Below are positions 38,210-62,970 of a stretch of 64,000 nucleotides of DNA, in pieces. The notes beneath the pieces were generated by a model that was given only the letters and a program-made list of their open reading frames with translations, did no database searches and was not told where the DNA came from. The translations under genes were made by a program, and so were the position numbers. Each line of letters opens with the position of its first letter. Position 1 is the first letter of the stretch. This stretch comes from a virus: the IMG/VR virus record IMGVR_UViG_3300037466_003456, positions 32,001-96,000 of that record. The stretch is one strand, 5' to 3'.

Positions 38210-38213
38210 TAGG

Positions 38214-38239: not shown

Positions 38240-38275
38240 ATTTATAATAGGACTATCGAACTAAAAAGAAAGAAG

Positions 38276-38959: not shown

Positions 38960-39033
38960 AGCCTTGATTCGTGAATTATGATACATTATTTATAGGTCAT
39001 TTTTCCTATGTAAATAAAGTGAGGTGGAACTGT

Positions 39034-41271: not shown

Positions 41272-41302
41272 TAAAACTCCCCAGTATTAGTTATTTTCTT
41301 TG

Positions 41303-41327
41303 ACACCCCCTTTGTAGGGGGTGTTTT
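41303..41327 (+). terminator. Intrinsic terminator
   Basis: ACACCCCC-TTTGTA-GGGGGTGT followed by TTT. Confidence 0.75.
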
Positions 41328-41331
41328 CGTT

Positions 41332-41354
41332 TAGGACTTTAGTTCTACTATAAC
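41332..41354 (+). promoter_or_regulatory. Candidate late promoter TAGGACT-N9-CTATAA
   Basis: Directly after a terminator, upstream of the terminase operon. Confidence 0.5.
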
Positions 41355-41408
41355 CCCTCTTTTTAAAGTACAATAGTACTACATAATCCGCTGAAAGGAG
41401 GGGTTGAA

Positions 41409-42581: not shown

Positions 42582-42592
42582 GAGGTTGCAAG

Positions 42593-44248: not shown

Positions 44249-44287
44249 TAAAATCATTATATAGAAAACTAAAAGGAGGAATAGACC

Positions 44288-45202: not shown

Positions 45203-45203
45203 T

Positions 45204-46856
45204 GTGTCGAACTACTTTGAAGAATTAGAGAAGATTGCCAATGACCTTACATTGGTGGATGATCTTGCTGCAGAGCCAATGGTTCCCGATTATGCACCTC
45301 AGATTCCTCCAGAGGAAGTGGAAGCGATTCAAGCCAATCAACCTGATATGGTCGATACCGAAGCTGGAATGGAAGGGCAAGAACCCGTTTCCCAGGAAGA
45401 TATAGAAGCTTATGATCAGGCAATCGAGCAAGCTCAAATGCAATTGGAATCTGCTAAAGAAACGTTGGCGAGTGCCATGGAAGAATACAATGCATTCGAA
45501 AAAACCGCTCAAGAACTAAATGATGCTCTTCCGACCATGGGAGCATTGGCTAAGTTAATTGAATACTCCACAAGCGAAACCATCGACGATGACCTTCGGA
45601 AACAGGCAAGCGACCGTTTAGTAATGGCGCTTGAAAGTGAAGAAAGTTTTGTAGAAGTCATGGATAAAACAGCAAACGAGCTATTTGAAGACCAAGAAGA
45701 TAAGGATGCCCTATACTCTCCTGAAGGAAGGGAATATGTCATTGAGCGTCTTGCTTTGTTCGCTGAGGATGAGGAGTTAGAAAAGACAGCGGCTGATTTA
45801 GGTGGATTCGTGAATGACGCTCGTAAATGGGCCGCAGAATCCCTTGATGCAGCAAGGAAATTCCACAAATTACGTGCTGATGTTAAACAAACACAAGCTG
45901 AGGTTGACCGTTTAGAATCAATCATGAAAGAAAAAGTAAATGCATTGAAAGATGCGCAAAGCTTAAATGATGATGACTTGGTGGCTAAATTAGAACCAGA
46001 GGCCTTTGGAGCAAGGGATGACCACACTCGAATGAAAGGTCAGCTTTTAGATGAGCAGATACAACGAGACCGAGGAAGGAACTTATTGATCGGCGGGGCG
46101 ACAGGACTGGTTGGTGGTTCTTTATTTGCAGGTAAAAAAATAGCCGATGCCTTCAATAATCATGGTGAAAACCAAGGTGAAAATGAATTGGCAGAGAAAA
46201 CGGCTAGTGATACAATAAAACAAGATTATGTATTTAAAGAAGGAGGCAATATTAACATGGCAGAATCAATCGTAAAAGATTTTCTTAAAATCGCGGGAGC
46301 GGCTGTTTTATTAGATGTGGCAAACGATGAGGGTGCTGAAGAGGCAATCCGCAAAGAAGCAGCTGAAGCTTTTAACGGTATCGCTCGCATGGGGCGTAAG
46401 GATATGGAGGAAGCTCTTGTAAAAGTTGCTACTCAAATGTATTCTGAAGACCAATTACACGAAATCGTTTCAGGCAAACATAATGAAGAGTTATTCGGTA
46501 AGGTTGCATTCTTCACTAGCCTTAACGACCTTTCTGTGGACGAGCTTGAAAAAGTTGCGGCTGCTGAGTCTGTTGCAGCTAAAGGTGTTGGCGGCGCTCT
46601 TACTGACGCTAAATCAAACATCGAAGCAAAAGTAGAAGGCGACAAAAAGAAAACCGAAACAGTGGCTAACGGCGAAATCGGCACTAAAAAGGCTGACGAT
46701 ATGCGCGGTTACAATGTAATCAATAGCCCTGGTGAATACAAGGTTGAAAAAACTGCGGCTACACAAACTATGCTTGAAGAAGCTGAGCTTCGCAAAGAAG
46801 CAGCATACAAAGCATTTGTAGAAGCTGATACTTTCATTAAAAACAATTCTAAGTAA
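45204..46856 (+). CDS. Putative scaffold/internal head protein with K-x-A motifs (550 aa)
   Basis: Acidic and helical; LEKIA, FEKTA, MDKTA, LEKTA, AEKTA, FLKIA, LVKVA, LEKVA, VEKTA; one Gly-rich TM-like segment. Confidence 0.7.
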   Translation: MSNYFEELEKIANDLTLVDDLAAEPMVPDYAPQIPPEEVEAIQANQPDMVDTEAGMEGQEPVSQEDIEAYDQAIEQAQMQLESAKETLASAMEEYNAFEKTAQELNDALPTMGALAKLIEYSTSETIDDDLRKQASDRLVMALESEESFVEVMDKTANELFEDQEDKDALYSPEGREYVIERLALFAEDEELEKTAADLGGFVNDARKWAAESLDAARKFHKLRADVKQTQAEVDRLESIMKEKVNALKDAQSLNDDDLVAKLEPEAFGARDDHTRMKGQLLDEQIQRDRGRNLLIGGATGLVGGSLFAGKKIADAFNNHGENQGENELAEKTASDTIKQDYVFKEGGNINMAESIVKDFLKIAGAAVLLDVANDEGAEEAIRKEAAEAFNGIARMGRKDMEEALVKVATQMYSEDQLHEIVSGKHNEELFGKVAFFTSLNDLSVDELEKVAAAESVAAKGVGGALTDAKSNIEAKVEGDKKKTETVANGEIGTKKADDMRGYNVINSPGEYKVEKTAATQTMLEEAELRKEAAYKAFVEADTFIKNNSK

Positions 46857-46882
46857 GATAGCAATAGCTTGAACTAAAAATG

Positions 46883-46915
46883 AGAAAAGCGTCCTATGTG
46901 GCGCTTTTCTTTTTT
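46883..46915 (+). terminator. Intrinsic terminator
   Basis: AGAAAAGCG...CGCTTTTCT followed by a T tract. Confidence 0.75.
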
Positions 46916-46923
46916 GTATTATA

Positions 46924-46953
46924 TAGGACTTAAAATCTAGTACAATAGAACTA
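46924..46953 (+). promoter_or_regulatory. Candidate late promoter TAGGACT-N9-GTACAATAGAACTA
   Basis: Directly after a terminator; shares TAYAATAG-N-ACTA with 38243 and 41369. Confidence 0.5.
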
Positions 46954-46993
46954 TCGAATAAAACGAACTTATGGAGATAGTAGGTGAAACCTT

Positions 46994-48436
46994 TTGGCAA
47001 AGAAAAAAGAGATGTATGAAGATCATTTAGGAAATCTTTCTTGGAAAGATTCTTGGCTTCAAAACACTGTCCAATTGGCAGCCTTGGGTGGAATCGTGGC
47101 GGGAGCGAGCAGTTTAGCCATTAAGGGTGACTTAGGAGATGCGTTCAGAACCGGTAAGTCTGCCTTTAAACCTGTAGGTAAGGTGTTTGATAAGTACGTG
47201 AAAGACAGAGCTGGCATGCCAGTTAAATTCGGGTACCAGGTGTTCAAAAATATGTATAACAACATGAGGAAATTGACACCTGAAGAAAGAGATGTCTTCG
47301 AACGAGGTTTCTATGGCCGAGTAGACAACGCGGTAGACAAAGTAGATACCGATCCCGAAATTCAAAATCGTATTTGGAAAGAAGTGGAACGGAGATTTCC
47401 GACAGAACGAGAAAGACAGAAAGTAAGAGACCGACGTAACGGAACCAATAATTTTTCCCAAACAAGTGACAATGAAGCGATTGACCAGATTTATGAACAA
47501 GTACGCTCTGAAGAACGGGATAAGTTGATTTACGGCAACAGCAATGGAGGACAACGAAATAACCGAAACAACCGGAATAACAATACTTTCAATAACCATA
47601 ACAACAATCGACCGTTGTTCGACAAGAGAGATTTAGCCCAAAAGTTCATTGCAAGTGGCGTGATGGGATTAGGTACGGGAGCTGGTCTTACAGCCTTCCA
47701 TTACATTGACCGATTATCGAAAGACCCGAGCTCCCAACAAAGATTGGAGAACACATTTCAACATGCTGGTTCGTTCTTAAATCCTCAGAAAAAGGATGAT
47801 GATAAAAAGATGGATAAACAAGCGAGTGTACTAGGATTTTACAACGCTGTAAAGGATGCACCTAAAAAACTACCTGAAGCTCTTTTTGCCGGCGCAGGAT
47901 ACACAGGTCTTACATTAGGTACTGCCAAGTTACTACATGGCCATGACCCGCGTAAGACAGAACCACAAGCAAATGAGGAACCGGCGTCCGCAGGACCACG
48001 AGTCATCATTGAACTAGGAAACCCCACTGAAGAACAACAGCATGCTGGCATGCCACTCGGTTTAAGTGGTCTTCCTAAATTGGCAGGTTTCAGAAACTTT
48101 TTAAATGACTTTAACGGGCATGAAGCGGAAATTGGTAGATTGCAAAACATTCACCATGCAGATGTAGCGGCAGAAGCACTAAAGAATGAAAACGTCGAAG
48201 ACCTTCTTCATCAGCAGTATGGGCATTTGGTCAACGATAAAACTCAAGCGAATTTCACCAATCGCCTTTTCGAAAGCAGAGCAGCGCAGTCTAAACAGGA
48301 AGCGGATGAAAGAATCAGACAACTTCAAGAACAAGAAGCAAGAGCAAAACTAACTGTTTACGGTGGCGGCATTGGCGCTGCTGGTTTAGCTGGAATGGGT
48401 TATGCCCACCACAAAAAGGAGCAACCAAATGTATAA
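46994..48436 (+). CDS. Putative virion membrane-active protein (480 aa)
   Basis: Four Gly/Ala-rich hydrophobic segments; MDKQA and LPKLA motifs; N-rich linker. Confidence 0.7.
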   Translation: MAKKKEMYEDHLGNLSWKDSWLQNTVQLAALGGIVAGASSLAIKGDLGDAFRTGKSAFKPVGKVFDKYVKDRAGMPVKFGYQVFKNMYNNMRKLTPEERDVFERGFYGRVDNAVDKVDTDPEIQNRIWKEVERRFPTERERQKVRDRRNGTNNFSQTSDNEAIDQIYEQVRSEERDKLIYGNSNGGQRNNRNNRNNNTFNNHNNNRPLFDKRDLAQKFIASGVMGLGTGAGLTAFHYIDRLSKDPSSQQRLENTFQHAGSFLNPQKKDDDKKMDKQASVLGFYNAVKDAPKKLPEALFAGAGYTGLTLGTAKLLHGHDPRKTEPQANEEPASAGPRVIIELGNPTEEQQHAGMPLGLSGLPKLAGFRNFLNDFNGHEAEIGRLQNIHHADVAAEALKNENVEDLLHQQYGHLVNDKTQANFTNRLFESRAAQSKQEADERIRQLQEQEARAKLTVYGGGIGAAGLAGMGYAHHKKEQPNV

Positions 48437-48728
48437 CTTGCCCGTTGATCAGCACCCCACCGAAAGATGGGCAACTATTGTGGAAGGGGCCAGAACCCAA
48501 CGCGTTATTGCCCTCCGATACCGGGATAAATCGTTCGAGGTGTCCGAAAGATTGGTTGAACCCTACGAGATCAAACAAGGAAAACTGTTTGCCCACTGTT
48601 TAACGAAAAACGGAATGAGAGCATTTATCCTCGACAACATTTTAGCGGCAGCAGGTACAAACACCGAGTTTGTTCCTCGCTTCCCTGTTGTCGTGGAATC
48701 CTTCCAGTCCTTGAAAGCAAAACAATAA
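48429..48728 (+). CDS. Stand-alone WYL-domain protein
   Basis: IALRYRDK...ERLVEPYEI..GKLFAHC....MRAFILDNI; start after AAGGAG, overlapping the upstream stop. Confidence 0.8.
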   Translation: MYNLPVDQHPTERWATIVEGARTQRVIALRYRDKSFEVSERLVEPYEIKQGKLFAHCLTKNGMRAFILDNILAAAGTNTEFVPRFPVVVESFQSLKAKQ

Positions 48729-48752
48729 GCACCTCCCATAGGTGCTTTCTTC
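48727..48752 (+). terminator. Intrinsic terminator
   Basis: AAGCACCT-CCCAT-AGGTGCTT followed by a T/C tract. Confidence 0.65.
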
Positions 48753-48777
48753 CATATAAAAGAGGTGAACCTTTTTA

Positions 48778-50667
48778 ATGATTAAAATTTCGTCTTTTCT
48801 CGTCAATGACAGAGCAACAAGAGTATATGCCGATTATGTTGAAAAAGTCGCATTTCCAATAGGTGCTGACGCTGGTTTGATTATGGGTTCGATTGCTGCT
48901 GGACTAACAATGAATCACTTCTCCAGAAAAGCAAAAGAGCAACAGCAACAACAAAACGCACAGCCATCTCCTAGCATTGAAAATGGTGCGTACACCCAAA
49001 TTGAAAATATGTTACGTGATCTTAAAATTGTTTTCACACCGATTAGCGTCATTTATTCGGTGAATGGGCAAGTATTTGAAATCATCAGTACCGAAGAAAT
49101 GAATGCTTATATGAGGCAAGCGTTCATCCAAAAAGATGCTAATTATTTTCGTGACCTTCTCTTAAACAAAATTAATATGGAAACACAATTAGCCGAGCAA
49201 GCCTTTGCCCAGCGCCTTTTGACCGCAAACGGAGTGGGTGAACAGCAAAAGCAGGCAAACTTCCTGGAAAAACAAGAATACCTTTTGAAACTTTCGGAAG
49301 AAGAAAGCGATGTTTTGGTGAAAAAAGCATCGCAAGGATTGGATGGAGTAAAAATCACCATCGACCCAACTTTTGATTCTCTCCGTCCCTTCGATCATTC
49401 CATCACTTTTTGCAACCCGAGGGAATTGGAAAAAGTGGCAGGCATTTTTGAATTATTCCAAGGCGATCAAGTTCAAGATGTCGGAGTTCATCAATTAAAC
49501 AGTCAAGTGAACGTCGGATTCCTTCCTGACAGAGTGGTGTTCTTGTGGAATGGACAACTGATTGACCAGCTTACCCTCCTTCACATGAATGAAGAAGGTT
49601 TTGAAGCATTCCGGAACCGAGATAAACCATTTTTTATCGACTTATTTAAGCAATATACCAAAGAAGTAACGGAGGGATTACAGGAATCTCCATCGGAACC
49701 AAATCATATTGAAGCGCCTGAAGAGGAAACCCATGAAGCTTCTGTATCCGACATTCTGGAACGGCTAGAAAAGACTGCTGAGGGCTTTGAGGACATCCTA
49801 GATGACTTTACTCCTGTTATTGAAAGAGATCATATAGAGCTATTTGAAGATCCTGATATCCATCCGATTGTGTACGACAAAGTATTGTCTCACAAGTACA
49901 GCAATTCATGGCACAGACACGAAATGGAATCAATTATGAAACAGATTGAGGAGGACTTCCACCTATCTAAAGGGATAGAGGAGAATCCACTTAATAAACT
50001 TTCCATCATTCATGCCATTTCGAATCCTGACCACGCCATGTACACATCACCATTTACATTTGAAAAGTACATGCGTGGTATGAATTCCAAATCCGTTTTA
50101 TTTGAGGATTTTCAAGGCAATCTCTCTTTCGAGGAAATCATGTTTGGTTTGGAATTAGCCAAACTCTATAACGGAGAGGAAGTGTTTTTTGAGTTCCACT
50201 CCAATGTTGCTGCTTATGTAGCAGAAGAAATCATGAATGATGGAGTTCGATTTGTTTCTAACGTGCTATACGACGAAACGAATCCATCTGAAAATGATTT
50301 CTTCCGTACAGTCAATGACTTACTGATGAGGAAATGGAAAGAAGAAGATTCACTGGGATACAGGGATAACGAGGGCGTTCGCCATCGACATACATTAACG
50401 GAACAGATTGTTGAAATCGCCGATGACATCTTAAAACATTACAATTCTTTGTTGGATGTTGCGGATCCCTACAATTCTACCCGAAATATTTTGCGAAGTG
50501 AAAACTTACTGGATGTTGTTTCTTCACAAGACCAAACAAGTGTGAGAAACATGGTGGTTCAGAATGTTGTGGCTCATGTCACCACTTCCTTGTTTTTAGA
50601 TTATAAACGTGAAGAATATGAACACTCCATCTCATTGTTACAGAAAGAAGGTGTGCTAAATGGATGA
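48778..50667 (+). CDS. Putative virion protein with K-x-A motifs (629 aa)
   Basis: VEKVA, LVKKA, LEKVA, ILERLEKTA; internal duplicated segment (TPISVIYSVNGQ / LPDRVVFLWNGQ); overlaps the portal start. Confidence 0.7.
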   Translation: MIKISSFLVNDRATRVYADYVEKVAFPIGADAGLIMGSIAAGLTMNHFSRKAKEQQQQQNAQPSPSIENGAYTQIENMLRDLKIVFTPISVIYSVNGQVFEIISTEEMNAYMRQAFIQKDANYFRDLLLNKINMETQLAEQAFAQRLLTANGVGEQQKQANFLEKQEYLLKLSEEESDVLVKKASQGLDGVKITIDPTFDSLRPFDHSITFCNPRELEKVAGIFELFQGDQVQDVGVHQLNSQVNVGFLPDRVVFLWNGQLIDQLTLLHMNEEGFEAFRNRDKPFFIDLFKQYTKEVTEGLQESPSEPNHIEAPEEETHEASVSDILERLEKTAEGFEDILDDFTPVIERDHIELFEDPDIHPIVYDKVLSHKYSNSWHRHEMESIMKQIEEDFHLSKGIEENPLNKLSIIHAISNPDHAMYTSPFTFEKYMRGMNSKSVLFEDFQGNLSFEEIMFGLELAKLYNGEEVFFEFHSNVAAYVAEEIMNDGVRFVSNVLYDETNPSENDFFRTVNDLLMRKWKEEDSLGYRDNEGVRHRHTLTEQIVEIADDILKHYNSLLDVADPYNSTRNILRSENLLDVVSSQDQTSVRNMVVQNVVAHVTTSLFLDYKREEYEHSISLLQKEGVLNG

Positions 50668-52693
50668 AAACATGAAAGCCGACATTTCCCGCATGGAAGA
50701 AAAGATGGCGAACTATCTTGATAAATTAACAGGTCATTCCGATGGAATGTTTAAAACGGCGGCTGCTACTGGGATGATGTATAACTCCAGCTACAAACAA
50801 TATCGTTCCAGCTTTTTAACCCTCGGAGATATGCAAATTCCTGATGATTATCGGGAGATTTTTAGATGGTGCCGATACTTTTTTAAGTTTGATAGTTTGG
50901 TTGGGGCGGCAGTTCGTTCACTAGCCACCTTCCCGATAACAGATTGGGTGTTAGATGATACGGAGAATTCCGACGATGAGGATTCAGAGGATCAATCAGA
51001 GGATGAATCAGAAGAACCCTCTGAAACTTACAAATTTTACGAGAGTATCTTAAATGACATCAAGCTATACAGCCACATGATTGAGGTTGGCTACGATTAC
51101 TTCTTGTACGGTAACTGTGTCATATTTGCCGAGCCGGGAGTCAAGAATATCAAACGTCGTGACCCTGACACCGGACAAGTATCCGAAAGAAAAGAAGTGG
51201 TTTGGAAATCGATTCAACGATTGGATGTTACCCGTCTTCGGATTGACCGAGACCCAAAAACAAATGAAAAACAATATTACTATGACATTCCTTTGGAATT
51301 AAAGCGTGTCATTCAAACGCAGAAACCGAAGGAAAAATACGATAGAATACCAGAAATTTTCAAAAAGGCGGTTAAAGCAAAAGGATTGGTCAAACTAAAA
51401 TCCGACTACATCTATCATTTGCAGATGCCTTCTGAAAGCGGAGATTCAGGATTATGGGCCACACCACCGGTGTTACATGCCATGAAGCTTATCTTGTATT
51501 CGAACGTGTTGAGACAAGCGCAAGAAGCGATTGCCTATGAACATATCATCCCTAAGCGGATCTACTATTTCCAAGAAACGCAGGAGTATTCGCCAAACAT
51601 GGACTTTGCTTCCATCGCTTCCGAGTTCGCCCTTGAATTAAAACGTCAGCTCGATGATCCAAACTACCAGGTCATTAGCCCGTTCCCAATCAATCAGCTC
51701 ATGCATGGCGGACAGGGTAAGGCATTGATGCTCGTTCCTGAATTGGAACAGCTGCAAGAAACCATCTTAGCGGCGATGGGTACTCCACGTGAATTCGTTT
51801 TTGGAGGAGTTTCCTATTCTGGCAGTACAACGAGTCTACGAATCTTGGAAAACCAATTTATCACGTACCGTACCAATTTACTGGACTATATCAATGATTT
51901 CTTAATTAAGAGATTGGCAGAAATCCGAGGTGAATGGGAAACCATCGACGATGATAAAAAGCTCGTAAAAGTTCAGTTTGCCGAGCTCAAGATGCAAGAT
52001 GATATCCAACAAAAGCAACTAATGTTGCAACTCAATGAAGCGGGTAAACTGCCGGATGAAGTGTTGTACGAAAAGGTATTGGGCCTCGATGCCAGCAAGA
52101 CGATTAAGCAATTGCAGGCAGAACGCATCCGAAAACTAAAAGAGCAAGCAGAACTGCAAATTAACCAAATGGAAATTGAGCAGGAAATGCAAGATGAAGC
52201 GATGCAGAGGGGATTAATGACTCCACCTGTTCCTGTGAATGGTCCTGTTATTCCTGAACCTGCAGCAGGCGCATATGGTCAGGCAACCGAGGGAGACCCG
52301 ATGATGGCTGAGGCTGGCGGTGATATGGCTGGCGATCCTACAGGAGGAGCTCAACCGACTTCGGACAGTAGTCAATCTTCTTCTGGTTCAAGTAGCGGAA
52401 GTAACTCATCATCAAAATCGGACAAGTCATCATCCGATAAAAAATCCGGTGAATCGGGTGGTAAGTCGGGACGTGAGGAACGCGATGCCTTAAAGATGGC
52501 TCAGCAAATGGAACTAATGACTGAAGCACAAAAGGCGAATCTTATCCGCAAACTTCCTCAGAAGGAAGCGCAACGGATTCTCCTATACTACAACCAGTTA
52601 AAGGCAGAACACGGTTCATCCGATTCTGGAGAAACCGACATGAGACCATACCCTGAACAGCGCCCACCACGTAGAACGGTCGGTGGTGTGTAA
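50660..52693 (+). CDS. Portal protein
   Basis: IFRWCRYFFKFDSLVGAAV, DYFLYGNCVIF, LQETILAAMGTP..F, SYSGSTTSLRIL; size, acidic low-complexity tail and location near terL fit. Confidence 0.75.
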   Translation: MDENMKADISRMEEKMANYLDKLTGHSDGMFKTAAATGMMYNSSYKQYRSSFLTLGDMQIPDDYREIFRWCRYFFKFDSLVGAAVRSLATFPITDWVLDDTENSDDEDSEDQSEDESEEPSETYKFYESILNDIKLYSHMIEVGYDYFLYGNCVIFAEPGVKNIKRRDPDTGQVSERKEVVWKSIQRLDVTRLRIDRDPKTNEKQYYYDIPLELKRVIQTQKPKEKYDRIPEIFKKAVKAKGLVKLKSDYIYHLQMPSESGDSGLWATPPVLHAMKLILYSNVLRQAQEAIAYEHIIPKRIYYFQETQEYSPNMDFASIASEFALELKRQLDDPNYQVISPFPINQLMHGGQGKALMLVPELEQLQETILAAMGTPREFVFGGVSYSGSTTSLRILENQFITYRTNLLDYINDFLIKRLAEIRGEWETIDDDKKLVKVQFAELKMQDDIQQKQLMLQLNEAGKLPDEVLYEKVLGLDASKTIKQLQAERIRKLKEQAELQINQMEIEQEMQDEAMQRGLMTPPVPVNGPVIPEPAAGAYGQATEGDPMMAEAGGDMAGDPTGGAQPTSDSSQSSSGSSSGSNSSSKSDKSSSDKKSGESGGKSGREERDALKMAQQMELMTEAQKANLIRKLPQKEAQRILLYYNQLKAEHGSSDSGETDMRPYPEQRPPRRTVGGV

Positions 52694-53028
52694 TGCTTCG
52701 TGCCTATGATCTTTCTTCCATGACGGAAAAAGCAAATGAATTATTAAATGATCCATCCTTACGGTTAATTAGCTTAAATATTTCCTGTTCTGCTGAAACG
52801 GCCTACACGGTTGCAAGCATGCGTCTTGCGCCGTGTCCTGCTAGGGAAACGAGATTCAACCGCTATTTGGAACGATTCATTTTGCTTGGAGGAAGTGGGA
52901 ATCATGATTTAGATAGAAAATTAGCCGATAAAAATGTTCGATTGCTGAAACAGCATATTTTCCCGACCAGCGAAGGGACGATCGTGGTCATCGATTATCA
53001 GGTTAAAAAAGGAAGGACGGTTGACTAA
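52693..53028 (+). CDS. Hypothetical protein (111 aa) coupled to portal and RNAP
   Basis: TAATG overlaps at both ends. Confidence 0.65.
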   Translation: MLRAYDLSSMTEKANELLNDPSLRLISLNISCSAETAYTVASMRLAPCPARETRFNRYLERFILLGGSGNHDLDRKLADKNVRLLKQHIFPTSEGTIVVIDYQVKKGRTVD

Positions 53029-56000
53029 TGGAACAGTTCAATCATCAGCAAGCGGTTGAAAACCTACATGCTAAAGTAAAAGCTATTTTTGATCAATACT
53101 TCCCATACGAAAGAAATGATTATCGTTTTGAGGTGAAGAACATCCACTTCGAAGATCCTTCCATTTCGCATGCTAGCCAAGAACAGGCTTTCTTAAATGA
53201 CTCCAGCATTGAATCCCTTGTTCGTGGTGACGTAGAAGTTTACCACAAAGGGCAGTTGGTGAAGACACACACTAATCAAATTCTAGTCCGTATCCCTTAC
53301 CCAACGGAAAGAGGTACATACATTGCAGCAGGAAACGAACTGGCTGTTTTAAATCGTATGTCGAGAAGGAATGGAATCTACATTCACCCTGTTAGGGATA
53401 TTCGGCATACGCAAATCCTTACAGCAGAAGTCCGTTCAAAAGGCTCTCGTTTCGAAATCAATTTTGATACAAACAGAGGTCAAATCAAGATTGAGAAATT
53501 AGGAGATTTCGGTAAAAGCAGTCCTGGTTCCATTGATTTAATCTCATTCCTTCATGTATTAGGTGTAACGGATGCGGAAATCAAGTCCGCTGTGAATGAT
53601 AAGGAATTGTCAGATACCCTTCTTGCCAATTCAACCAATGCGACTACACAAAAAATCTACACCGCTATTTTTGCCAAGGAATATCCGGGAGCAGAAGAAG
53701 CAAAGCAACAAATTATTGATTTCGTCAATGGTCGCTTAGTCTTTGATCAAGACGCCCAAAAAGTGAATAATCAAACCATTGGTTCTCCTATCAGCGTATT
53801 TGATGCCAGCGCCTTTTTACAGACACTTTCCCAGCTTAGTAAGGAATACCGAAGTCCGGGAACAACGGTGGAGCCTGACGATTTCCGTTTTAAAGAAATT
53901 AAGGCACCAGAAGACACCGTTTCTGAATTTGTCCGCAGAGGGATTAAGGAGTGGGTAGACAAAAGGCTCCGTCCGATTACTTATTCCGATTACAATGACC
54001 GAAAAACCATCAATGCCAAACCAGACCAATTCATTTACAGACCTATTAAATCACTCTACAACAGTGATATTGCGGAACTAGTAGATAGCGCAAATCCTCT
54101 GGATGTGCATCAAAAACTCTATAAAGTAACACAGGTCGGCACTGGAAATATGAACAAGAAATCGGTAACGAACTATAACCGTAATATTCAGGACACAGCA
54201 TTTGCGAAAGTCGATGCCCTTGAAACTCCACAAAGCTACAGTATGGGATTGGTGCAGCATTTCGCTTCGGGAGCCAAAATTAAGGATGGCCGTGTCTATT
54301 CGAAGTTTTATCGGGTGAACAATGGAAAAATCGATACAAGCAAAGTTATCGATGACATTGACCCTCTCGACGAGTATGAAGAGTTTATCGGATTTAACAC
54401 ACCCGCAGAATTAAATAAGGATGCAAGTGGCCATATTACTTCTTTCAAAAACGATCAGGTTCGAGTCCGTCATCACGGGACCTTCATGACCGTTCCGAAA
54501 AATCAAGTAACCCTAATTGATACCAGTTCTTCTGCACATATGAGCCATGCCTTGAGTTTAATTCCATTTGGTGCAAGCAATGATGGCGCGCGTATGCTGA
54601 TGGGAGCATCGATGCAAAAGCAATCGTTAAATCTCGAGAATCCTGAAGCTCCACTTGTGCAAAGTATATCCGATCCTGTAACCGGAAAAACAGTTGAACA
54701 AGAAATGGCAGACCGAGCTTCTTATATCCTTCGTTCCCCTGTCAGCGGCACGGTTAAGCATATTGGAGAAAACTCCATTGATATCGATACGGGAGATGGT
54801 GTTCATAAGGTTGACAAGCTAAATTATTTTGTCACAGGCAAAGCAGGTGGATTTATTCATCACAAACCAACAGTGAAAGTCGGAGATACCGTTCAGAAGG
54901 ATGATTTGCTTGCTGACGGCTGGCAAAGTAAGAACGGACAGTTGGCATTGGGTAGAAACATCACCGTCGCTTACATGCCGTTTAAGGGCTACAATTTTGA
55001 GGATGGAGTAGTAGTTTCAGAGAGTTTCGCTAAAAAAATGGCGTCGGAAGAAGTAAAACCTCTTGAGATTATCCTAGAATCACAGAATGGCAGAGTTTTA
55101 TTCAATGACCCTAAAGCAACGTCCATCCTTAATGGGTTACACGTGTCTCCTGCCCTGTTATCTAAGTTGGATTCAAACGGAATCATCAAGAAGGGCGAGG
55201 AAGTTCATGCTGGCGATATCCTTGTCGCAGCGGTAAAGGAAATTGAAAAAGAAGATTTATCAGCTGGACAAAGAGATTTGAAGAATTTACTGCGTGGGAA
55301 GATCGTTCAAAGCGAAGCCGATAATTACAAAGATGTTTCCCGGAGAGCAGTCGGTTACCAGAAAGGAAAAGTCATCAATGTGCAAGTGACCAATACCGCA
55401 GAAGGACAAACTAAAGTAACGATTCTTCTTTTATCCTTCAAACCCATGGAATTGGGAGATAAACTATCTGGAAGACACGGAAACAAGGGTACGATTACTA
55501 AAATACTTCCTGACGATCAAATGCCTCATACAGAGGATGGAAAGCCAGTTGAATTGATTTTCTCCCCTCTTGCGGTGCCGTCGAGAAAAAATCCGGGGCA
55601 GCTTTATGAAGTGAATGCCGGACTGGTCGCACAGAAAAAAGGAATGGATGTTTACAAGGTTCATAACTTTGATGCCAATGAAGTGGATAAGCTGAAGAAA
55701 CACCTTGAAGACATTGGCATGCCAGATGGAAAGCAAACATTGATTAATCCCGACACCGGAAAACCTTATGAAAATAAGATTACTGTGGGTCCCATGTTTA
55801 TTTTAAAACTGAAACATAAAGTAGAAAGCAAGATTACGGCAAGAAATATAAACGGTTCTCAGGATCCTCTCAAATTATCGCCAAGAAAAACATCAGGTTC
55901 CATTGATGGGGATCGCCACAATCCGCAATCTGTGGGGGGAATGGAGTTCTGGAGCCTAACAAGCGCCGGCGCTGTTCATAACATTCACGATATGACCACT

Positions 56001-59000
56001 CTTAAATCCGATGGAGCTGGAGATAAAAAACGACGGAAAGAAATCTTTGATGCGATAAGACGTGGGATGCCGATTCCTGAACCTGTCACTCCTCAGAGTG
56101 TGAAGATATTAGGAGACAAACTATTATCCGCAGGGGTGCAAATGACTCCTCTTCGTGAAGATAAACAAGTTTCTCTCGATGATAAGTTTACGGAACTTAT
56201 GCTCAATCCATTAAGAAAAGACGACCTTATGAATCTGGCAAAAGACAAGGTAACTTCTTCTAAGGGGATGATCGCAAGAACCAAAAATTTCGCTCCTGGC
56301 GGTATTTATGACCCTGAGATTTTTGGTGCAGACGGTTCACAATGGGCAAGGATTGATTTAGCGGAACCAATGCCAAATCCGTTATTCCTTGAAAACAATA
56401 CGGGACCTCGCCCATATGAAGCGATGTTGTTTTCGAAAGGATATAAACAAACGGACATTAAAAATCTAGTGAATGGTGATATGTTCCTTGTAGAAGACCC
56501 GAAGGATTCAGGATTAAAACAAGGAGAATTGGTCAATTTAAAACAGTTAGACGACCTAATGGCAGAAGGAAAAAAACTAGTGACTGATACCGGAGGTAGA
56601 GCCCTTTCAAAGTTATTAGAAAAGGTTGATATAAAGGAAGAGTTAAAGAAAGCAGAAAGCCGTTTAAGTGAAGCAAAGACGCTTGCTCAACGCTCAAAGG
56701 CTGAACAACAAGTATTAGTATTAGGGAAAGCCTTAGATCAAAAATTGAAGCCGACAGACTTTATGATGACTTCTGTTCCTGTCCTCCCTGTTAAATATAG
56801 GGAACCTAAGCTCGACGGAAAAGTGTTTACCGAGGATGGAATCTCCAAACTCTATAACAACTTAATCAAAAAGAACGATGAATATGAAAAATTCAAAGAG
56901 GCACATAACGGAGATCTTTCCAATTCGGACCGTTCCGCATACGCAGGAGCGATGGGAGATTACTACGATGGTCTTAAGGATATTATCGGCACTAAGCTAA
57001 AACCTGTAGTAGACGATAAGACTGGTCAGCCATTGAAAGGTATCATGCACACCTTAAAGTCCAAACAAGGATTTCTCCGTTCCAACATGCAATCGAAAAT
57101 GCAAGATTACTCAGGACGTTCCGTTATTATCGTTGATCCTACTCTGAAGCTGGATGAAGTGGCCCTGCCGGAAGACATGGCAAGCGAACTGTTCCTCCCT
57201 CATGTCATGGGTGAGCTACAACGATTACGCTACTCTCCGAAAGAAATCGAACATTTTGTTACGCATAAGACGAAAGAATTCCGAGATGCCTTGGAGAAAG
57301 TAACCAAGAATCATCCTGTCATTTTAAACCGTCAACCTTCTTTGCACCGCCATAGTTTACAAGCCTTCTACCCTAGAATTAACTGGAATGGGGATAAGGT
57401 AAAACATCGTGCAATCGGGCTAAATCCCGTTGTTACGACAGGGTACAACGCTGATTTTGATGGTGACACGATGTCTGTACATGTGCCAATCACACCTGCT
57501 GCCATCGAAGAAGCAAAGAACAAATTGCTTCCAAGTCAGAATCTACTCAACCCGACAAACAATGGCATCATCACTGACCTAAAACACGAAATGCAACTAG
57601 GAATCTTCTATATGACACGGGATATTCTACCTCAAGGAAAGCCGGAGGAGTTCTCCAATTTCCGAGAATTAGAGGATGCTTATAATAAAGGCCGCATTAA
57701 AACCTATGAATCGGTTCGGATGAATGTTCCTGGTATCGGTTTGGTCACAGCAACAGCAGGACAGCATCTATTTAACCTTTCTCTACCAATGGGATTCCAA
57801 GATTATGAGGGCAACAAAAACGTCAACAAAGGCAAGATGGAGAAGATTCTTTCTAAGATCATCAATGCTCCGAATGGCGGCGCTCAAAAAGCAGTTCAAG
57901 CGATCAATGCCTTACAGACGATTGGGTTCCAAACCGCCACATATTCAGGGATGAGCATTGGGGCAAAAGACTTTGAACCAGTGCTTCAGGAGAAACAAAA
58001 CCATCTTTTAGAGGCGGCAGAAAAACAATTCGGTAAAGCAGAGAACCGATTAGCCGCAGGATTATTGGATGTACGACAGGTGTGGGATGAGGAGAAAGCA
58101 AAGCTCGCCAAGAATCATCTAGTCGATTACATTAAGACTTCCCTTGACTCTAACAATCCTGTGGAAATCATGCAGCGTTCAGGAGCTCGTGGTAATGCCG
58201 GACAGATCAATGCGATGGCGGGTATTATCGGGGTTGGTAAAGACGTCACAGGTCGGGAAACACGTGCGATTACCGGCTCTCACCTAGAAGGTTTAAGTCC
58301 TGACCAATTCTGGGATTTAGCTTACGACAGCCGTAAAGGGATTCTGGATAAATCCATCTCTACTCAAGACCCAGGTGCTTTAACACGAGAAATCTGGATG
58401 ACGAATAAGCAAACTGTCATTTCGGAACGTGATTGTGGTGATACGCAAGGTATCTGGCTGGATATGACAAACAGTAGTGATAAACAAACCATTAAGGGGC
58501 GTGTGTTATTACATGATGTTCCCCTTTCAAAAGGCGGGGTTGTACGTGTCACTCGACGTCCTTTGACCGTTCATGAGGAAGAATTGATTATGTCTCATGC
58601 AAAAGGAAAAGTGAATGTTCGCAGTCCGTTAAGCTGTAAATCCACAAGTGGAGTCTGTCAGATGTGTTATGGAAGAAAGCCAGGAGGCGTGACGAATGAT
58701 TTCATTCCAATTGGTGACCCTGTTGGAAGTATCGCAGCTCAGGCGCTGGGCGAACCATCCACTCAGGCCATCTTGAAGGCATTTCACGTCGGCGCGGCCA
58801 ATGCCGCTGCTTCAAATGCGTTTGAACGGATTCAAGAAGCTCTCCGGATTCCACAGCATTTGAAAAACACTTCTAAAGAGGCAGTCATTGCAGAGGAAGA
58901 TGGTGTGGTAACAGATGTTGAACATCATCCGATTACCGGAACCGTTGTAAAAATCGGAAGCAAGAAATACAAATTGCATCACAAAGTATTATCCGATTTC

Positions 59001-59753
59001 GTCAAAGCAGGTGCCCATATCAATAAGGGAGATTTGTTGACCAAGGAGTTTACAGATAGTGGCGATCGTTTGGTTATCCGAAATCCACATGATGTCTTAA
59101 AATTCCAAGGAGTAGATGCAGCTCAGGATTATATCATGAGAGCCATTGAAGATGGATACCACGCGGCGGATATTAAAGATACAGACCGCAGACACTATGA
59201 GGTCATCACCCGTAATATGATGGATCATGCAGTCATCAAAAACCCTGGCACTTCCCCTTATACGTCAGGTCAGGTCGTTCCGCTTAGCACGGTGGAAAAA
59301 TATAATCAGTTGGCCGGAAGAGTTCACTCTGTTGCGATGGATTACTCTAATCGGATGAATGTCATTGGAGCTGTGGCGGCACAGGATTACAATGATCCAA
59401 TCACCATGAAGCCAATTGTCCATAAAGGTGAAGTTATCACGGAACCTATTTGGGAACAACTGAAAAACAGACAGCATATCAAGGTTCAGAAAAAACCGCT
59501 TGAGTACGAGCGAAAACTTATCGGGGTTAATACTAAGAGCTTAAAAGGTAACAATTGGTTAGATTCCGCTGGTTTCGGGGATGCAACCCGATTAATTGGC
59601 GAAGCGGCTGTCCTTGGCATGAAGGATAAGTTGGATACACCTCTTTCTCGTCAAATGACAGGACTAAAAGGTAACTTCTCTGACGGGTATGAACCGCACA
59701 AAGAGAAAGAAAAAGAACATGGAATTATGGCGTTTGTCCATGGTTTCTTGTAA
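53028..59753 (+). CDS. rpoBC: DNA-directed RNA polymerase, fused beta-beta-prime subunits (2241 aa)
   Basis: Beta motifs: LETPQ, LIPF..NDGARMLMGASMQKQ, GYNFEDG, GDKLSGRHGNKG, MFILKLKH. Beta-prime motifs: DYSGRSVI, LNRQPSLH, YNADFDGD (57444-57467), SGARG, RSPLSC..GVCQMCYG, AQALGEPSTQ. Confidence 0.97.
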   Translation: MEQFNHQQAVENLHAKVKAIFDQYFPYERNDYRFEVKNIHFEDPSISHASQEQAFLNDSSIESLVRGDVEVYHKGQLVKTHTNQILVRIPYPTERGTYIAAGNELAVLNRMSRRNGIYIHPVRDIRHTQILTAEVRSKGSRFEINFDTNRGQIKIEKLGDFGKSSPGSIDLISFLHVLGVTDAEIKSAVNDKELSDTLLANSTNATTQKIYTAIFAKEYPGAEEAKQQIIDFVNGRLVFDQDAQKVNNQTIGSPISVFDASAFLQTLSQLSKEYRSPGTTVEPDDFRFKEIKAPEDTVSEFVRRGIKEWVDKRLRPITYSDYNDRKTINAKPDQFIYRPIKSLYNSDIAELVDSANPLDVHQKLYKVTQVGTGNMNKKSVTNYNRNIQDTAFAKVDALETPQSYSMGLVQHFASGAKIKDGRVYSKFYRVNNGKIDTSKVIDDIDPLDEYEEFIGFNTPAELNKDASGHITSFKNDQVRVRHHGTFMTVPKNQVTLIDTSSSAHMSHALSLIPFGASNDGARMLMGASMQKQSLNLENPEAPLVQSISDPVTGKTVEQEMADRASYILRSPVSGTVKHIGENSIDIDTGDGVHKVDKLNYFVTGKAGGFIHHKPTVKVGDTVQKDDLLADGWQSKNGQLALGRNITVAYMPFKGYNFEDGVVVSESFAKKMASEEVKPLEIILESQNGRVLFNDPKATSILNGLHVSPALLSKLDSNGIIKKGEEVHAGDILVAAVKEIEKEDLSAGQRDLKNLLRGKIVQSEADNYKDVSRRAVGYQKGKVINVQVTNTAEGQTKVTILLLSFKPMELGDKLSGRHGNKGTITKILPDDQMPHTEDGKPVELIFSPLAVPSRKNPGQLYEVNAGLVAQKKGMDVYKVHNFDANEVDKLKKHLEDIGMPDGKQTLINPDTGKPYENKITVGPMFILKLKHKVESKITARNINGSQDPLKLSPRKTSGSIDGDRHNPQSVGGMEFWSLTSAGAVHNIHDMTTLKSDGAGDKKRRKEIFDAIRRGMPIPEPVTPQSVKILGDKLLSAGVQMTPLREDKQVSLDDKFTELMLNPLRKDDLMNLAKDKVTSSKGMIARTKNFAPGGIYDPEIFGADGSQWARIDLAEPMPNPLFLENNTGPRPYEAMLFSKGYKQTDIKNLVNGDMFLVEDPKDSGLKQGELVNLKQLDDLMAEGKKLVTDTGGRALSKLLEKVDIKEELKKAESRLSEAKTLAQRSKAEQQVLVLGKALDQKLKPTDFMMTSVPVLPVKYREPKLDGKVFTEDGISKLYNNLIKKNDEYEKFKEAHNGDLSNSDRSAYAGAMGDYYDGLKDIIGTKLKPVVDDKTGQPLKGIMHTLKSKQGFLRSNMQSKMQDYSGRSVIIVDPTLKLDEVALPEDMASELFLPHVMGELQRLRYSPKEIEHFVTHKTKEFRDALEKVTKNHPVILNRQPSLHRHSLQAFYPRINWNGDKVKHRAIGLNPVVTTGYNADFDGDTMSVHVPITPAAIEEAKNKLLPSQNLLNPTNNGIITDLKHEMQLGIFYMTRDILPQGKPEEFSNFRELEDAYNKGRIKTYESVRMNVPGIGLVTATAGQHLFNLSLPMGFQDYEGNKNVNKGKMEKILSKIINAPNGGAQKAVQAINALQTIGFQTATYSGMSIGAKDFEPVLQEKQNHLLEAAEKQFGKAENRLAAGLLDVRQVWDEEKAKLAKNHLVDYIKTSLDSNNPVEIMQRSGARGNAGQINAMAGIIGVGKDVTGRETRAITGSHLEGLSPDQFWDLAYDSRKGILDKSISTQDPGALTREIWMTNKQTVISERDCGDTQGIWLDMTNSSDKQTIKGRVLLHDVPLSKGGVVRVTRRPLTVHEEELIMSHAKGKVNVRSPLSCKSTSGVCQMCYGRKPGGVTNDFIPIGDPVGSIAAQALGEPSTQAILKAFHVGAANAAASNAFERIQEALRIPQHLKNTSKEAVIAEEDGVVTDVEHHPITGTVVKIGSKKYKLHHKVLSDFVKAGAHINKGDLLTKEFTDSGDRLVIRNPHDVLKFQGVDAAQDYIMRAIEDGYHAADIKDTDRRHYEVITRNMMDHAVIKNPGTSPYTSGQVVPLSTVEKYNQLAGRVHSVAMDYSNRMNVIGAVAAQDYNDPITMKPIVHKGEVITEPIWEQLKNRQHIKVQKKPLEYERKLIGVNTKSLKGNNWLDSAGFGDATRLIGEAAVLGMKDKLDTPLSRQMTGLKGNFSDGYEPHKEKEKEHGIMAFVHGFL

Positions 59754-59784: not shown

Positions 59785-59955
59785 AACTTTCAACTTTTGG
59801 GGAATTGCTTTTCTTTCCCCTGAAGCCTTGCACTAGGGGTCAAGTCTTCGAAAAAGGTTGAAGTAAAGGAAAAGAGTGAACCTCGAAGCGTTTAGGCTAG
59901 AAAAGTCCGTTGTTCGCTGTGACGTCCCCGATTCGGTCGCAGGCTCGATTCTTCT
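59785..59955 (+). ncRNA. Candidate structured non-coding RNA
   Basis: Nested stems in a gene-free gap: TTCAACTTTT/AAAAGGTTGAA, GGGGAA/TTCCCC, GAAG/CTTC, AAGAGT/ATTCTT, TGTGAC/GTCGCA. Strand assumed. Confidence 0.3.
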
Positions 59956-59961
59956 TCAAAC

Positions 59962-59998
59962 AAAAAAACAGAAGACCCCAAAGGGTCCTCTGTTTTTT
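59962..59998. terminator. Bidirectional intrinsic terminator
   Basis: AAAACAGA.GACCC-CAAA-GGGTC.TCTGTTTT. Confidence 0.8.
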
Positions 59999-60001
59999 GT
60001 T

Positions 60002-60393: not shown

Positions 60394-60582
60394 TTATTTG
60401 CTAGTCTCTTTGACTGGTAAAACTTCACTTACTGGTATTTCTTCACCTGTTCGTCTATCCACGATGTATAGGTGCGCACTCCCATAAGCACCACCTCTGG
60501 CCACGAAGGAAACCGCATATCTCTCTTCGATTTCCTCTAACTCATGGACAGCAAGCGCGGCTCGATATTTCATATCTTTCAC
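60394..60582 (-). CDS. Hypothetical protein (62 aa)
   Basis: GTGA overlap with the helicase stop. Confidence 0.55.
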   Translation of the reverse strand: MKDMKYRAALAVHELEEIEERYAVSFVARGGAYGSAHLYIVDRRTGEEIPVSEVLPVKETSK

Positions 60583-62651
60583 CCCTCTAGTTGTAACGAT
60601 TGGATATATGCTGCCACGTCTTCCCAGTTCTTTGTTGCCTTAATTTTAAAGTCGAATGAATTAAATATCCTGTTTTTGTAGCTTGCGGAGGATAGCCTTC
60701 CTTCATAGCAAGCAAAAATTCCTTTATCGGTTGCCGTTCGGTTCAGTCGTCCAGAACCTTGCTTCAGGCTGATAATCGCTTCTGGCAAACTAAACGTATA
60801 GAATCCTCTTGGCTCCGACATGAGGTAATCGTTAATTGGATCAGCAACCATCGGAAAAGGTAGTTTATCTATCAAGACAGCTGATAAGTTCTGACCTTGA
60901 ATATCAATACCCGTAAACAGAGATTTCGTTCCAAGAACAACTGTATCCGGATGTTTTTTTAAATGATCGATGATTTTCTGCTTCGGCCATTTCTCTTGTG
61001 AAATCACTTGAATGGATTTCGGCAATACTCGAGTAAAATAGGTTTCTGCTTCTAATAGGTTTTTCCTTGATGTGAACAAACACAACGTGCGACCGTGCAA
61101 AAGATTAATGACCTTTTCCATCTGCACCAGAACAAAGGGCAAATGTTCCTTATCGGTACCTGCAGGTGTGCCAGGCGGCAAATACCAAAGAAAATTATTC
61201 TCTAAATCAAATGGGGAGCTAACGATGATTTCCTTCACAGGAAAGCGTTCTTGGTCACTCTCAATGCCGAGATCCGACTTAATATGTTCAAACGACTGAT
61301 TGGCAGAAAGGGTAGCGGACATCACAATCGGAATATATCCTTCTTCTCTCTTTTCAAACAATCGTTTGGTGAGTGCTGCTCCTGTAGTTGGTTTGGCATG
61401 AAGACTAACCATATCGTTTAGCGGTTGGAGCCAAAACAAATCCGTTCCATCATCCTGGTTTTCTTCATAATGAAAGATATATTCCAACAGGTTTGCTTTT
61501 TGTTCCAGCAGTTCCATTAAACGATAGACAATGATAAACCACTCTACCGAATCATCCCCATACATTTCAGCAGTCGCATGGATACTTTCCATGGAAAAAC
61601 CAAACTTTCTTAGGTAGTTTTCTGCTACCCCCGCAGAGAAACGTAGCGCCTCGATATGGGCGGTTGCATACTTTTGGAGACGAGTACGCTCAGGCACCTC
61701 TATTTGCCAAAAATCACGGGTGTAGTGACCTCTCACGACCCTTTTATATTCATGTGTCAGACCGACAAACATATCCGTCAAAGTTCCGTTTACCTGGTCT
61801 AACTCCATATCTGTAAAAATATTTATTACAGTTTCTCCTACTTCTGAAAGTTCTGCTCTTTGCATGGCTTTGGCGAATTGGTCAAAGTGGTTTTTAAGGA
61901 TACTGATGCTGTATTTTCTCTCTTGAAAGTCTCGGGCGATCGTGCTGACCTCGTGCCCTTCGTCACATATAAGGACTCGCGCTTTTGGAGGCAGCATATT
62001 TACTTCATCCAAAGCAGAGAAGAAGTAGTGGTAATTACAGACGACTAATTTGGAAGTAGCCACTTTCTTTCTTTCTCGATAATAATGACAAGTGTCGTAA
62101 AACGGACATTGTTTTCCGGTACACTCATTATTATCCAAACAAGCGACCTTCCCCCATACAACGGCGCTTGGATTGAAGTCCATTTCGGATTTGTCACCTG
62201 TTTTGGTACTGACTGCCCACTTCATGACACTATCATACTCTTCCGCATAATCGGGAGAGGAGAATCCAACTTTTCCACTTAATGCATCATTCAGTTTTTT
62301 AGGACATAAATAATTGTTTCGCCCTTTGATAAGAACTGGCGTTGCTTGGAAATTATACAGTTTCTCTAGTGTCGGAATATCTTTATTAATATACTGTTCT
62401 TGAAGGATGATCGAGCTAGTGGCAACTATCACCGGTTCATCCGTTTTCATAATATGTTCGAAAGCTGGCACAAGGGCGGCTAAACTTTTGCCGACCCCTG
62501 TAGGAGCTTCTCCTAACAATGCTGACTCGTCTTTGATGGCTTCTTGTATCTTTTGAGACAGTTCCACTTGTTGAGGTCTCTCTTTGTAATTTGGAACAGC
62601 CTTCGCTAATAACCCCTGTTCACCGAACGTTTCGGTTACTAAATCCCTCAT
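60579..62651 (-). CDS. dinG: DinG/YoaA-family Fe-S cluster helicase
   Basis: Q-motif RPQQ, EAPTGVGKS, four Cys (YLCP, ACL, ECTGKQCPF, TCH), CDEGH, MSATL, QGSGRLNR. Confidence 0.92.
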   Translation of the reverse strand: MRDLVTETFGEQGLLAKAVPNYKERPQQVELSQKIQEAIKDESALLGEAPTGVGKSLAALVPAFEHIMKTDEPVIVATSSIILQEQYINKDIPTLEKLYNFQATPVLIKGRNNYLCPKKLNDALSGKVGFSSPDYAEEYDSVMKWAVSTKTGDKSEMDFNPSAVVWGKVACLDNNECTGKQCPFYDTCHYYRERKKVATSKLVVCNYHYFFSALDEVNMLPPKARVLICDEGHEVSTIARDFQERKYSISILKNHFDQFAKAMQRAELSEVGETVINIFTDMELDQVNGTLTDMFVGLTHEYKRVVRGHYTRDFWQIEVPERTRLQKYATAHIEALRFSAGVAENYLRKFGFSMESIHATAEMYGDDSVEWFIIVYRLMELLEQKANLLEYIFHYEENQDDGTDLFWLQPLNDMVSLHAKPTTGAALTKRLFEKREEGYIPIVMSATLSANQSFEHIKSDLGIESDQERFPVKEIIVSSPFDLENNFLWYLPPGTPAGTDKEHLPFVLVQMEKVINLLHGRTLCLFTSRKNLLEAETYFTRVLPKSIQVISQEKWPKQKIIDHLKKHPDTVVLGTKSLFTGIDIQGQNLSAVLIDKLPFPMVADPINDYLMSEPRGFYTFSLPEAIISLKQGSGRLNRTATDKGIFACYEGRLSSASYKNRIFNSFDFKIKATKNWEDVAAYIQSLQLEG

Positions 62652-62664
62652 TGTCAAGACCCCT

Positions 62665-62970
62665 TTATTCTTCGTTAACGAACGCTTCCGCCCAAATGCC
62701 TTCATCCTCTGTATAATTTAACTCGATAACGGTGACATTTGGATCGAACGAATGATATCGTTCAAGGAAACTTTGGATTCCTACTAAGATGTTCTCAGTC
62801 TCTAATTCTTTTTTATATTTAGATCTGTAAACTGCTATAGCCGAGAACTCGCCACCTATGTGGTAATTAATTTCTTTTACATCCACATATTCAGGGTCTC
62901 CGTCATATTGATCCGCTACGTATACACAGATGCCGTCAATTATTTCTTGTTCGTTCAATTCAAGTTTCAT
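62665..62970 (-). CDS. YxcD-like (DUF2653-like) protein
   Basis: LNEQEIIDGICVYVA...PEYVDV.EINY....FSA...GIWA resembles Bacillus YxcD as recalled. Confidence 0.6.
   Translation of the reverse strand: MKLELNEQEIIDGICVYVADQYDGDPEYVDVKEINYHIGGEFSAIAVYRSKYKKELETENILVGIQSFLERYHSFDPNVTVIELNYTEDEGIWAEAFVNEE

Follow-up and report, generated by a model that had tools for sequence, protein, structure and literature searches.

A single-chain beta/beta-prime RNA polymerase encoded beside a phage portal gene and probably packaged in the virion

Introduction

Bacterial-type RNA polymerases (RNAPs) are generally considered dependent on a scaffold formed by the alpha dimer. Phages phiKZ and AR9 encode two-barrel enzymes without alpha, of which one set is packaged in the virion for early transcription (PMC7598289, PMC7824862); these enzymes are made of four or five polypeptides, come in two paralogous sets and have no sigma-70-type factor, and reviews of jumbo-phage RNAPs describe split enzymes only. 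Here we describe an RNAP gene at positions 53028-59753 (+) of a 64,000-nucleotide stretch of DNA from an uncultured soil phage (the window; bases 32001-96000 of the 121,681-bp IMG/VR virus record IMGVR_UViG_3300037466_003456, CheckV completeness ~80%), in which the equivalents of beta and beta-prime form one chain of 2,241 amino acids. In contrast to phiKZ and AR9, whose enzymes are far more diverged, the source phage has one chain, a single set in its ~80%-complete contig, and a sigma gene.

Beta and beta-prime are also joined in one polypeptide, in the same order, in Helicobacter and Wolbachia chromosomes, for which NCBIfam holds the models NF007172 and NF011417; an earlier note on this DNA had named both these fusions and the split state of the phiKZ and AR9 enzymes. 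The chromosomal fusions differ from the phage chain in being ordinary bacterial enzymes of ~2,800-2,900 amino acids that carry a zinc-binding domain. They work with alpha and omega. Large single polypeptides that are delivered with the DNA are known from N4 (its virion RNAP), crAss-like phages (gp66) and P23-45 (an RNAP fused to the tape measure), and the likeness is one of functional analogy only: the N4 enzyme is T7-like, and those of crAss and P23-45 are highly diverged proteins of the two-barrel type in which neither beta nor beta-prime domains can be recognised.

In the mReC group (Weinheimer & Aylward 2020; PMC7481178), a deep-branching RNAP clade with a T4-like major capsid protein, phage beta and beta-prime are homologous to the cellular subunits and branch outside cellular clades, as they do here. 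In the portion of that paper considered here, the table gives beta and beta-prime as separate proteins of ~900-1,520 amino acids, with one further entry that is a beta of 1,563 amino acids, and fusion is mentioned only for crAssphage. The mReC large terminase belongs to PF03237, that of the source phage to PF05876, and matching of our loci to the contig lists of the mReC supplement gave reference entries only.

The closest cultured relatives are Salmonella phage Arash (gp206 and gp216, OQ632216; PMC10585845) and Vibrio phage D69, alongside Vibrio phages D148 and D181. Arash and D69 fall in the same beta-prime clade as the source phage and share with it the gene order of portal, small open reading frame (ORF) and RNAP, a linkerless passage from beta into beta-prime, a low cysteine content and a sigma factor of their own. 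They differ in having Gram-negative hosts, in an RNAP identity of ~26% to that of the source phage, and in small upstream ORFs with no detectable relation to the 111-amino-acid gene found here. Their beta-prime is cut after about residue 1565 (source RNAP numbering), whereas the source chain is uninterrupted; the portal and small ORF are followed by a protein of 1,525-1,546 amino acids that joins beta to the front half of beta-prime, the back half having its own gene 0.6 kb away in D69 and ~4.8 kb away in Arash. The Arash paper annotates 'beta' and 'beta-prime', and the fusion goes unremarked (PMC10585845).

Results

One chain collinear with beta and beta-prime

The interval 53028-59753 (+) is one stop-free frame of 2,241 codons, as the earlier note had read it, and its product (P0001) has a mass of roughly 250 kDa. 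Pfam places Rpb2_3, Rpb2_45, Rpb2_6 and Rpb2_7 at residues 352-1040 and Rpb1_1 to Rpb1_5 at residues 1194-2075. Residues 1-350 have no Pfam match; their AlphaFold model (predicted local distance difference test score, pLDDT, 90.6) resembles the bacterial beta1-beta2 (protrusion/lobe) domains, with 4kbm_A as an example (template-modelling score 0.71/0.65). Because the Pfam domains follow in order and the first 350 residues model as bacterial beta1-beta2, the chain is collinear with beta and then beta-prime from end to end. Features were mapped in an alignment of the RNAP with 18 other family members and the Escherichia coli and Clostridioides difficile enzymes, in which the end of beta passes into the start of beta-prime with essentially zero linker.

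53028-59753 (+): single-chain beta/beta-prime RNAP gene, 2,241 amino acids, last gene of the plus-strand head operon
53028-56165 (+): beta-like part, residues 1-1046, with beta1/beta2 lobe and protrusion (1-343), fork, NFEDG, GDKLSGRHGNKG and C-terminal clamp segment
54993-55007 (+): NFEDG, residues 656-660, from a motif check in the sequence
55455-55490 (+): GDKLSGRHGNKG, residues 810-821, from the same check
56133-56207 (+): beta/beta-prime junction at ~residue 1046/1047, from the alignment of the family to the E. coli and C. difficile enzymes
56166-59750 (+): beta-prime-like part, residues 1047-2241, with clamp helices, NADFDGD, bridge helix, second zinc site, trigger loop and a 54-residue insertion, and without the insertion SI3
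56295-56381 (+): site at which beta-prime lacks its N-terminal zinc-binding domain (33 residues, in the region of E. coli C70-C88), by alignment
57447-57467 (+): NADFDGD, residues 1474-1480, from the motif check
58299-58409 (+): bridge helix, residues ~1758-1794, aligned to E. coli beta-prime 769-805
58434-58667 (+): second zinc site, C1803, C1870, C1877 and C1880, from the motif check
58707-58859 (+): trigger loop, residues 1894-1944, aligned to E. coli beta-prime 913-942/1131-1150
59313-59474 (+): 54-residue insertion, residues 2096-2149, absent in E. coli and C. difficile

The chain had also been called compact, a description that holds only in part. It is ~160 residues shorter than C. difficile beta and beta-prime together (2,241 versus 2,399). 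Relative to C. difficile it lacks ~28 N-terminal beta residues, the 115-residue clostridial lobe insertion and the zinc-binding domain, and it also lacks the proteobacterial lineage-specific insertions and SI3.

The catalytic apparatus, and what has been lost around it

The beta-prime Mg-binding triad stands in its double-psi barrel (NADFDGD; Pfam Rpb1_2, E=1.6e-29), and the beta barrel holds the conserved lysines (GDKxxGRHGNKG, residues 810-821) and the ED pair at residues 656-660 (Rpb2_6, E=4.8e-71). With the bridge helix and the trigger loop, these elements identify a two-barrel (multisubunit-type) RNAP whose catalytic elements are all intact, and the order of motifs claimed in the earlier note holds in Pfam and alignment alike. 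The F-loop is also present by alignment with E. coli and C. difficile. Motifs and full length are kept in relatives from 90% down to 26% identity, and such conservation across deep divergence makes catalytic competence a well-supported prediction. Substitutions in the rifampicin pocket, at the positions of E. coli H526 (K), S531 (T), Q513 (E) and R529 (K), suggest that the enzyme may be insensitive to rifampicin.

The 33 residues of the zinc-binding domain are a gap, without cysteine, in every family member aligned. The RNAP has four cysteines in 2,241 residues (0.18%), and all four are ligands at the second zinc site. In cellular enzymes the total for beta and beta-prime is 17-24, and phage RHph_TM30 has 16 in its separate beta-prime, encoded among replication genes. 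Most family members examined likewise have four and the remainder five to eight. Within the source phage, mean cysteine content is 0.46% for plus-strand proteins and 1.1% for minus-strand proteins. Two hallmarks of the family, as far as the aligned sequences tell, are the missing zinc-binding domain and a cysteine complement cut back to the four zinc ligands.

Separation from cellular enzymes

Beta-prime trees were built with FastTree (51 alignment rows) and with IQ-TREE in quick mode (LG+G4, 35 rows), with midpoint rooting only. One branch sets the fused proteins together with Arash and D69 apart, with Shimodaira-Hasegawa (SH)-like support of 94 in FastTree and an SH approximate likelihood-ratio test (SH-aLRT) of 99 in IQ-TREE. 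The bacterial sequences, among them two natural cellular rpoBC fusions (P0066, P0068), group together with 100% support and without the RNAP; the phylogeny that the earlier note had proposed thus places the phage protein outside bacterial RpoBC. The fused clade does not include RHph_TM30 or Vibrio 1.031.O, phages with a separate beta-prime. One fused subclade has Arash and D69 as its sister, and the subclade of the source phage branches outside that pair; given a root outside the fused clade, Arash and D69 are nested within it and the split of their beta-prime looks secondary.

The RNAP finds its best PDB and Pfam matches in bacterial beta and beta-prime. It is ~30% identical to any bacterial enzyme, and the NCBIfam cut-offs are not reached for rpoB (TIGR02013, 388 versus 801 bits; NF001616, 448 versus 896), for rpoC (TIGR02386, 565 versus 963.5) or for the cellular fused rpoBC models (NF007172, 588 versus 5,372; NF011417, 562 versus 4,632). 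Scores are thus about half of the rpoB and rpoC cut-offs and about one tenth of the fused-model cut-offs. Because the contig is viral, the gene lies in a late head operon by the portal, the trees place it outside bacteria and the scores stay below the cut-offs, the RNAP is a phage gene and not a cellular rpoBC. The claim that a phage encodes the chain stands, the virus record having a large terminase and a portal.

A large, portal-linked family

A fused, cellular-like enzyme had been called unusual for a Bacillus-type phage. It is not rare: a protein search gave ~80 clusters (90% identity) of fused proteins of 2,006-2,350 amino acids, longer where they have inteins, at 90% to 26% identity, and the fused chain is the hallmark of a large, portal-linked and biochemically uncharacterised phage family. 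In the literature we found no paper on a full beta/beta-prime fusion in phages and no biochemical study of this RNAP family or of a close relative. As to whether close relatives are already characterised, which the earlier note had left as a question, none is biochemically, and the partly fused enzyme of cultured Arash has been published with virion proteomics (PMC10585845).

A portal homologue adjoins the fused gene or lies a few genes away in 12/12 IMG/VR loci, and with Arash and D69 the linkage is seen in all 14 loci examined. In related loci that include that flank, the portal gene is upstream of the RNAP gene. The linkage persists where identity has fallen to 26-30% and the host belongs to another phylum, and the fused start, beta joined to the beginning of beta-prime, is shared with the Arash-like members.

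A fused RNAP with 65% identity occurs in at least five isolate assemblies of Priestia megaterium (P0009, P0011, P0122-P0124), which points to a Bacillus/Priestia-type host for the source phage. Four of the copies are on contigs of 174.5-180.1 kb, WP_098793433.1 for instance on one of 180 kb, and contigs so alike in size suggest that cultured strains harbour a complete phage genome, extrachromosomal or otherwise carried. A tblastn search of plasmids returned only chromosomal rpoBC filed as plasmids, with the RNAP gene on no Priestia plasmid; megablast against phage records gave no match, and the August 2025 collection of cultured phages holds no full fusion.

In some relatives LAGLIDADG / Hom_end inteins split the protein exactly within NADFDGD (P0023, P0054 and P0026; loci L011/L013). 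L011 has two inserts, and P0026 stops at '...NADCA', either as a truncated record or as a gene split at the intein site.

Position at the end of the head operon

All structural genes of the source phage, a tail/fibre block and a head block, are on the plus strand; the minus strand holds the remaining genes, including replication-type helicases, helix-turn-helix (HTH) regulators and the sigma gene.

42593-44248 (+): terminase large subunit, PF05876, in the same head block as the RNAP gene
46882-46990 (+): terminator-like hairpin followed by an AT-rich intergenic region with TATATAGGACT, a likely transcription-unit start
50660-52693 (+): portal protein, 677 amino acids, homologue of Arash portal gp204, upstream of the RNAP gene
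52693-53028 (+): 111-amino-acid gene, with TAATG stop/start overlaps with the portal gene and the RNAP gene
59955-60000 (no strand assigned): A-tract, GC hairpin and T-tract, a bidirectional terminator-like site that closes the converging plus- and minus-strand units

The TAATG overlaps predict translational coupling of the portal, 111-amino-acid and RNAP genes. On the evidence of the hairpin and TATATAGGACT region upstream and the terminator-like site after the RNAP gene, 46994-59753 is likely one late transcription unit that ends with that gene. Neither a tRNA nor a credible Rfam family was found in the intergenic stretch 3' of the RNAP gene.

The 111-amino-acid protein is conserved in close relatives (58-83% identity) and models as a small alpha/beta fold, for which reason it was rejected as an omega-like subunit. 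Foldseek gave no match for it at E<=0.001, the VIA structure comparison gave only generic ACT-like half-domain matches (Z ~5), and no similarity to Arash gp205 was found.

Several head-block proteins encoded at 33794-52693 contain the motif K[TVIQSA]A[SAGNE] at 5-16 per 1,000 residues, and it occurs neither in the 2,241 residues of the RNAP nor in the 111-amino-acid protein. Avoidance of this K-x-A motif by the RNAP was dropped as an idea, since 0 sites against ~3 expected from the genome-wide rate, or ~1.7 from a rough composition estimate, is not significant.

A DinG/XPD-like helicase gene (DEAD_2 and Helicase_C_2) at 60579-62705 (-) converges on the RNAP gene, and the RNAP genes of Arash, D69 and YerA41 are likewise flanked by helicase genes. 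The Arash helicase gp217 is abundant in mass spectrometry (MS) of virions; no sequence similarity of the window helicase to gp217 was found.

Partner proteins and candidate promoters

No homologue of alpha (PF01000) or omega (PF01192) was found in the ~80%-complete contig. A 196-amino-acid sigma-70-family protein is encoded outside the window, at 102953-103543 of the genome, and scores above the Sigma70_r2 and TIGR02937 cut-offs; it has no pairwise similarity to the Arash sigma candidates. The beta-prime clamp helices of the RNAP can be aligned with the bacterial ones. Each genome examined, including a 95%-complete relative of 175 kb, has a single RNAP catalytic centre. Multi-repeat Myb/HTH proteins, which are sigma region-4-like, are encoded at 7265-8494 (-) of the window and at 102021-102953 (-) of the genome, the latter directly downstream of the phage sigma gene.

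Two short motifs recur, mostly between genes:

5462, 6265, 6587, 6828, 7241, 13954, 22145, 24376, 32410, 33554 and 60349 (-): copies of TGTTAYAAG in the window
33615, 38248, 41332 and 46924 (+), 4264 (-): copies of TAGGACT in the window

The strictly conserved TGTTAYAAG has 17 copies in the 121.7-kb contig, all on the minus strand and most of them intergenic, upstream of minus-strand (non-structural) genes; it is usually followed by AGTG, four bases on. We regard it as a candidate early or middle promoter. It resembles the extended -10 element of sigma-A (TGnTATAAx), with a G at the last -10 position in 17/17 copies. The last T of the sigma-A -10 element is nearly invariant, so that this G argues against host sigma-A. 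TAGGACT has 20 copies in the contig, 14 of them intergenic, including copies upstream of head-block units, and often appears as TATAGGACTA. It could serve as an operator or as part of a late promoter; because its orientation is mixed, it is perhaps an operator rather than a promoter. Some of its copies form inverted pairs.

Discussion

The source phage encodes a single-chain RNAP, in our reading alpha-independent, that is probably packaged and delivered with the DNA. The gene would produce an active two-barrel enzyme with the equivalents of beta and beta-prime in one polypeptide, and since neither alpha nor omega was found in the phage contig, the covalent link plausibly does the scaffolding that cellular enzymes leave to the alpha dimer and omega during assembly. 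The gene would be read late, along with those for the portal and the head; its product would most likely be packed into the capsid, enter the next host with the DNA and transcribe the early phage genes without host RNAP. Promoter choice would probably fall to a phage factor, the 196-amino-acid sigma-70-family protein, with TGTTAYAAG upstream of the minus-strand genes as the candidate promoter.

Virion delivery is the best-supported mechanism, and we put its probability at about 0.6. Late expression is supported by the plus-strand placement of the structural genes, with the RNAP gene last in the block, by the TAATG overlaps and by the terminator-like site that follows. Packaging is supported by the portal linkage in the 12 IMG/VR loci and in Arash and D69, by the position in the late head operon, by the single RNAP catalytic centre found per genome, and by a cysteine content nearer to the plus-strand mean than to the minus-strand mean. 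In MS of Arash virions, no protein gave more spectra than gp206, with 3,516 and 128 unique peptides, against 1,210 spectra for gp216 and 877 for the portal; a sigma factor was also present (PMC10585845). The fuller proposal, in which the fused chain and the phage sigma form a two-protein holoenzyme without alpha or omega that, its zinc-binding domain lost and its free cysteines removed, is packed into the capsid, ejected and reads early minus-strand genes from TGTTAYAAG without host RNAP, is tentative, and we hold it possible though doubtful.

Several observations weigh against virion delivery or parts of the mechanism built on it. Presence in the virion is known within the family for Arash alone, by MS. 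The Arash preparation contained 116 'virion' proteins, ribonucleotide reductases among them, and its authors allow for carry-over of abundant proteins (PMC10585845). A second RNAP or an alpha-like gene could sit in the missing part of the contig, and Sigma70_r2 has no match in three distant relatives. The likeness of TGTTAYAAG to the sigma-A extended -10 means that host RNAP might read the early genes. Finally, the lack of the K-x-A motif of other head-block proteins (a deficit that is not significant) could reflect exclusion from the prohead just as well as motif avoidance.

Some of these points belong to the best of the alternatives, a non-virion polymerase made during infection that transcribes only middle or late phage genes, with host RNAP reading the early ones, like the non-virion RNAPs of phiKZ and AR9. 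In its favour, TGTTAYAAG looks like TGnTATAAx and the RNAP has zero sites of the head-protease type, and the phage sigma could instead redirect the host core enzyme. We nevertheless judge it unlikely. A gene at the end of the head operon would be made alongside or after its supposed targets, the linkage to the portal gene holds across very distant phages, and the Arash virion data speak for packaging; in cysteine content the RNAP resembles virion proteins and differs from the intracellular enzymes of the phage, and all 17 copies of TGTTAYAAG have a G where sigma-A generally requires its T.

That the protein is a catalytically dead relic, kept as a structural or ejection protein, would suit a gene among virion genes; conservation of the Asp triad, beta lysines, bridge helix, trigger loop and second zinc site down to 26% identity makes this very improbable. 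That the gene is a cellular rpoBC fusion, acquired from a host in recent times or lying on a bacterial fragment wrongly binned with viruses, is scarcely credible: such fusions exist (NF007172, NF011417) and the top PDB and Pfam matches are bacterial, yet the tree (RNAP outside bacteria, cellular fused P0066 inside) and the gene context (phage head genes as neighbours) refute it, and the ~30% identity to any bacterial enzyme, the 588 bits against a fused-rpoBC cut-off of 5,372 and the absent zinc-binding domain also speak against it.

A natural and widespread one-chain core without a nearby alpha or omega gene offers a minimal model for RNAP assembly, sigma recognition and engineering. If the enzyme is packaged and ejected, a cellular-type polymerase of ~250 kDa must pass through, or accompany, the DNA leaving the capsid, which is the same question that is being solved for N4 and phiKZ. 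Arash, D69 and the Priestia megaterium isolates with the 65%-identical copy are cultivable entry points to the family. Should the two-protein packaged holoenzyme prove true, no simpler RNAP of bacterial type would be known, and it would represent an injected transcription machine of a new kind.

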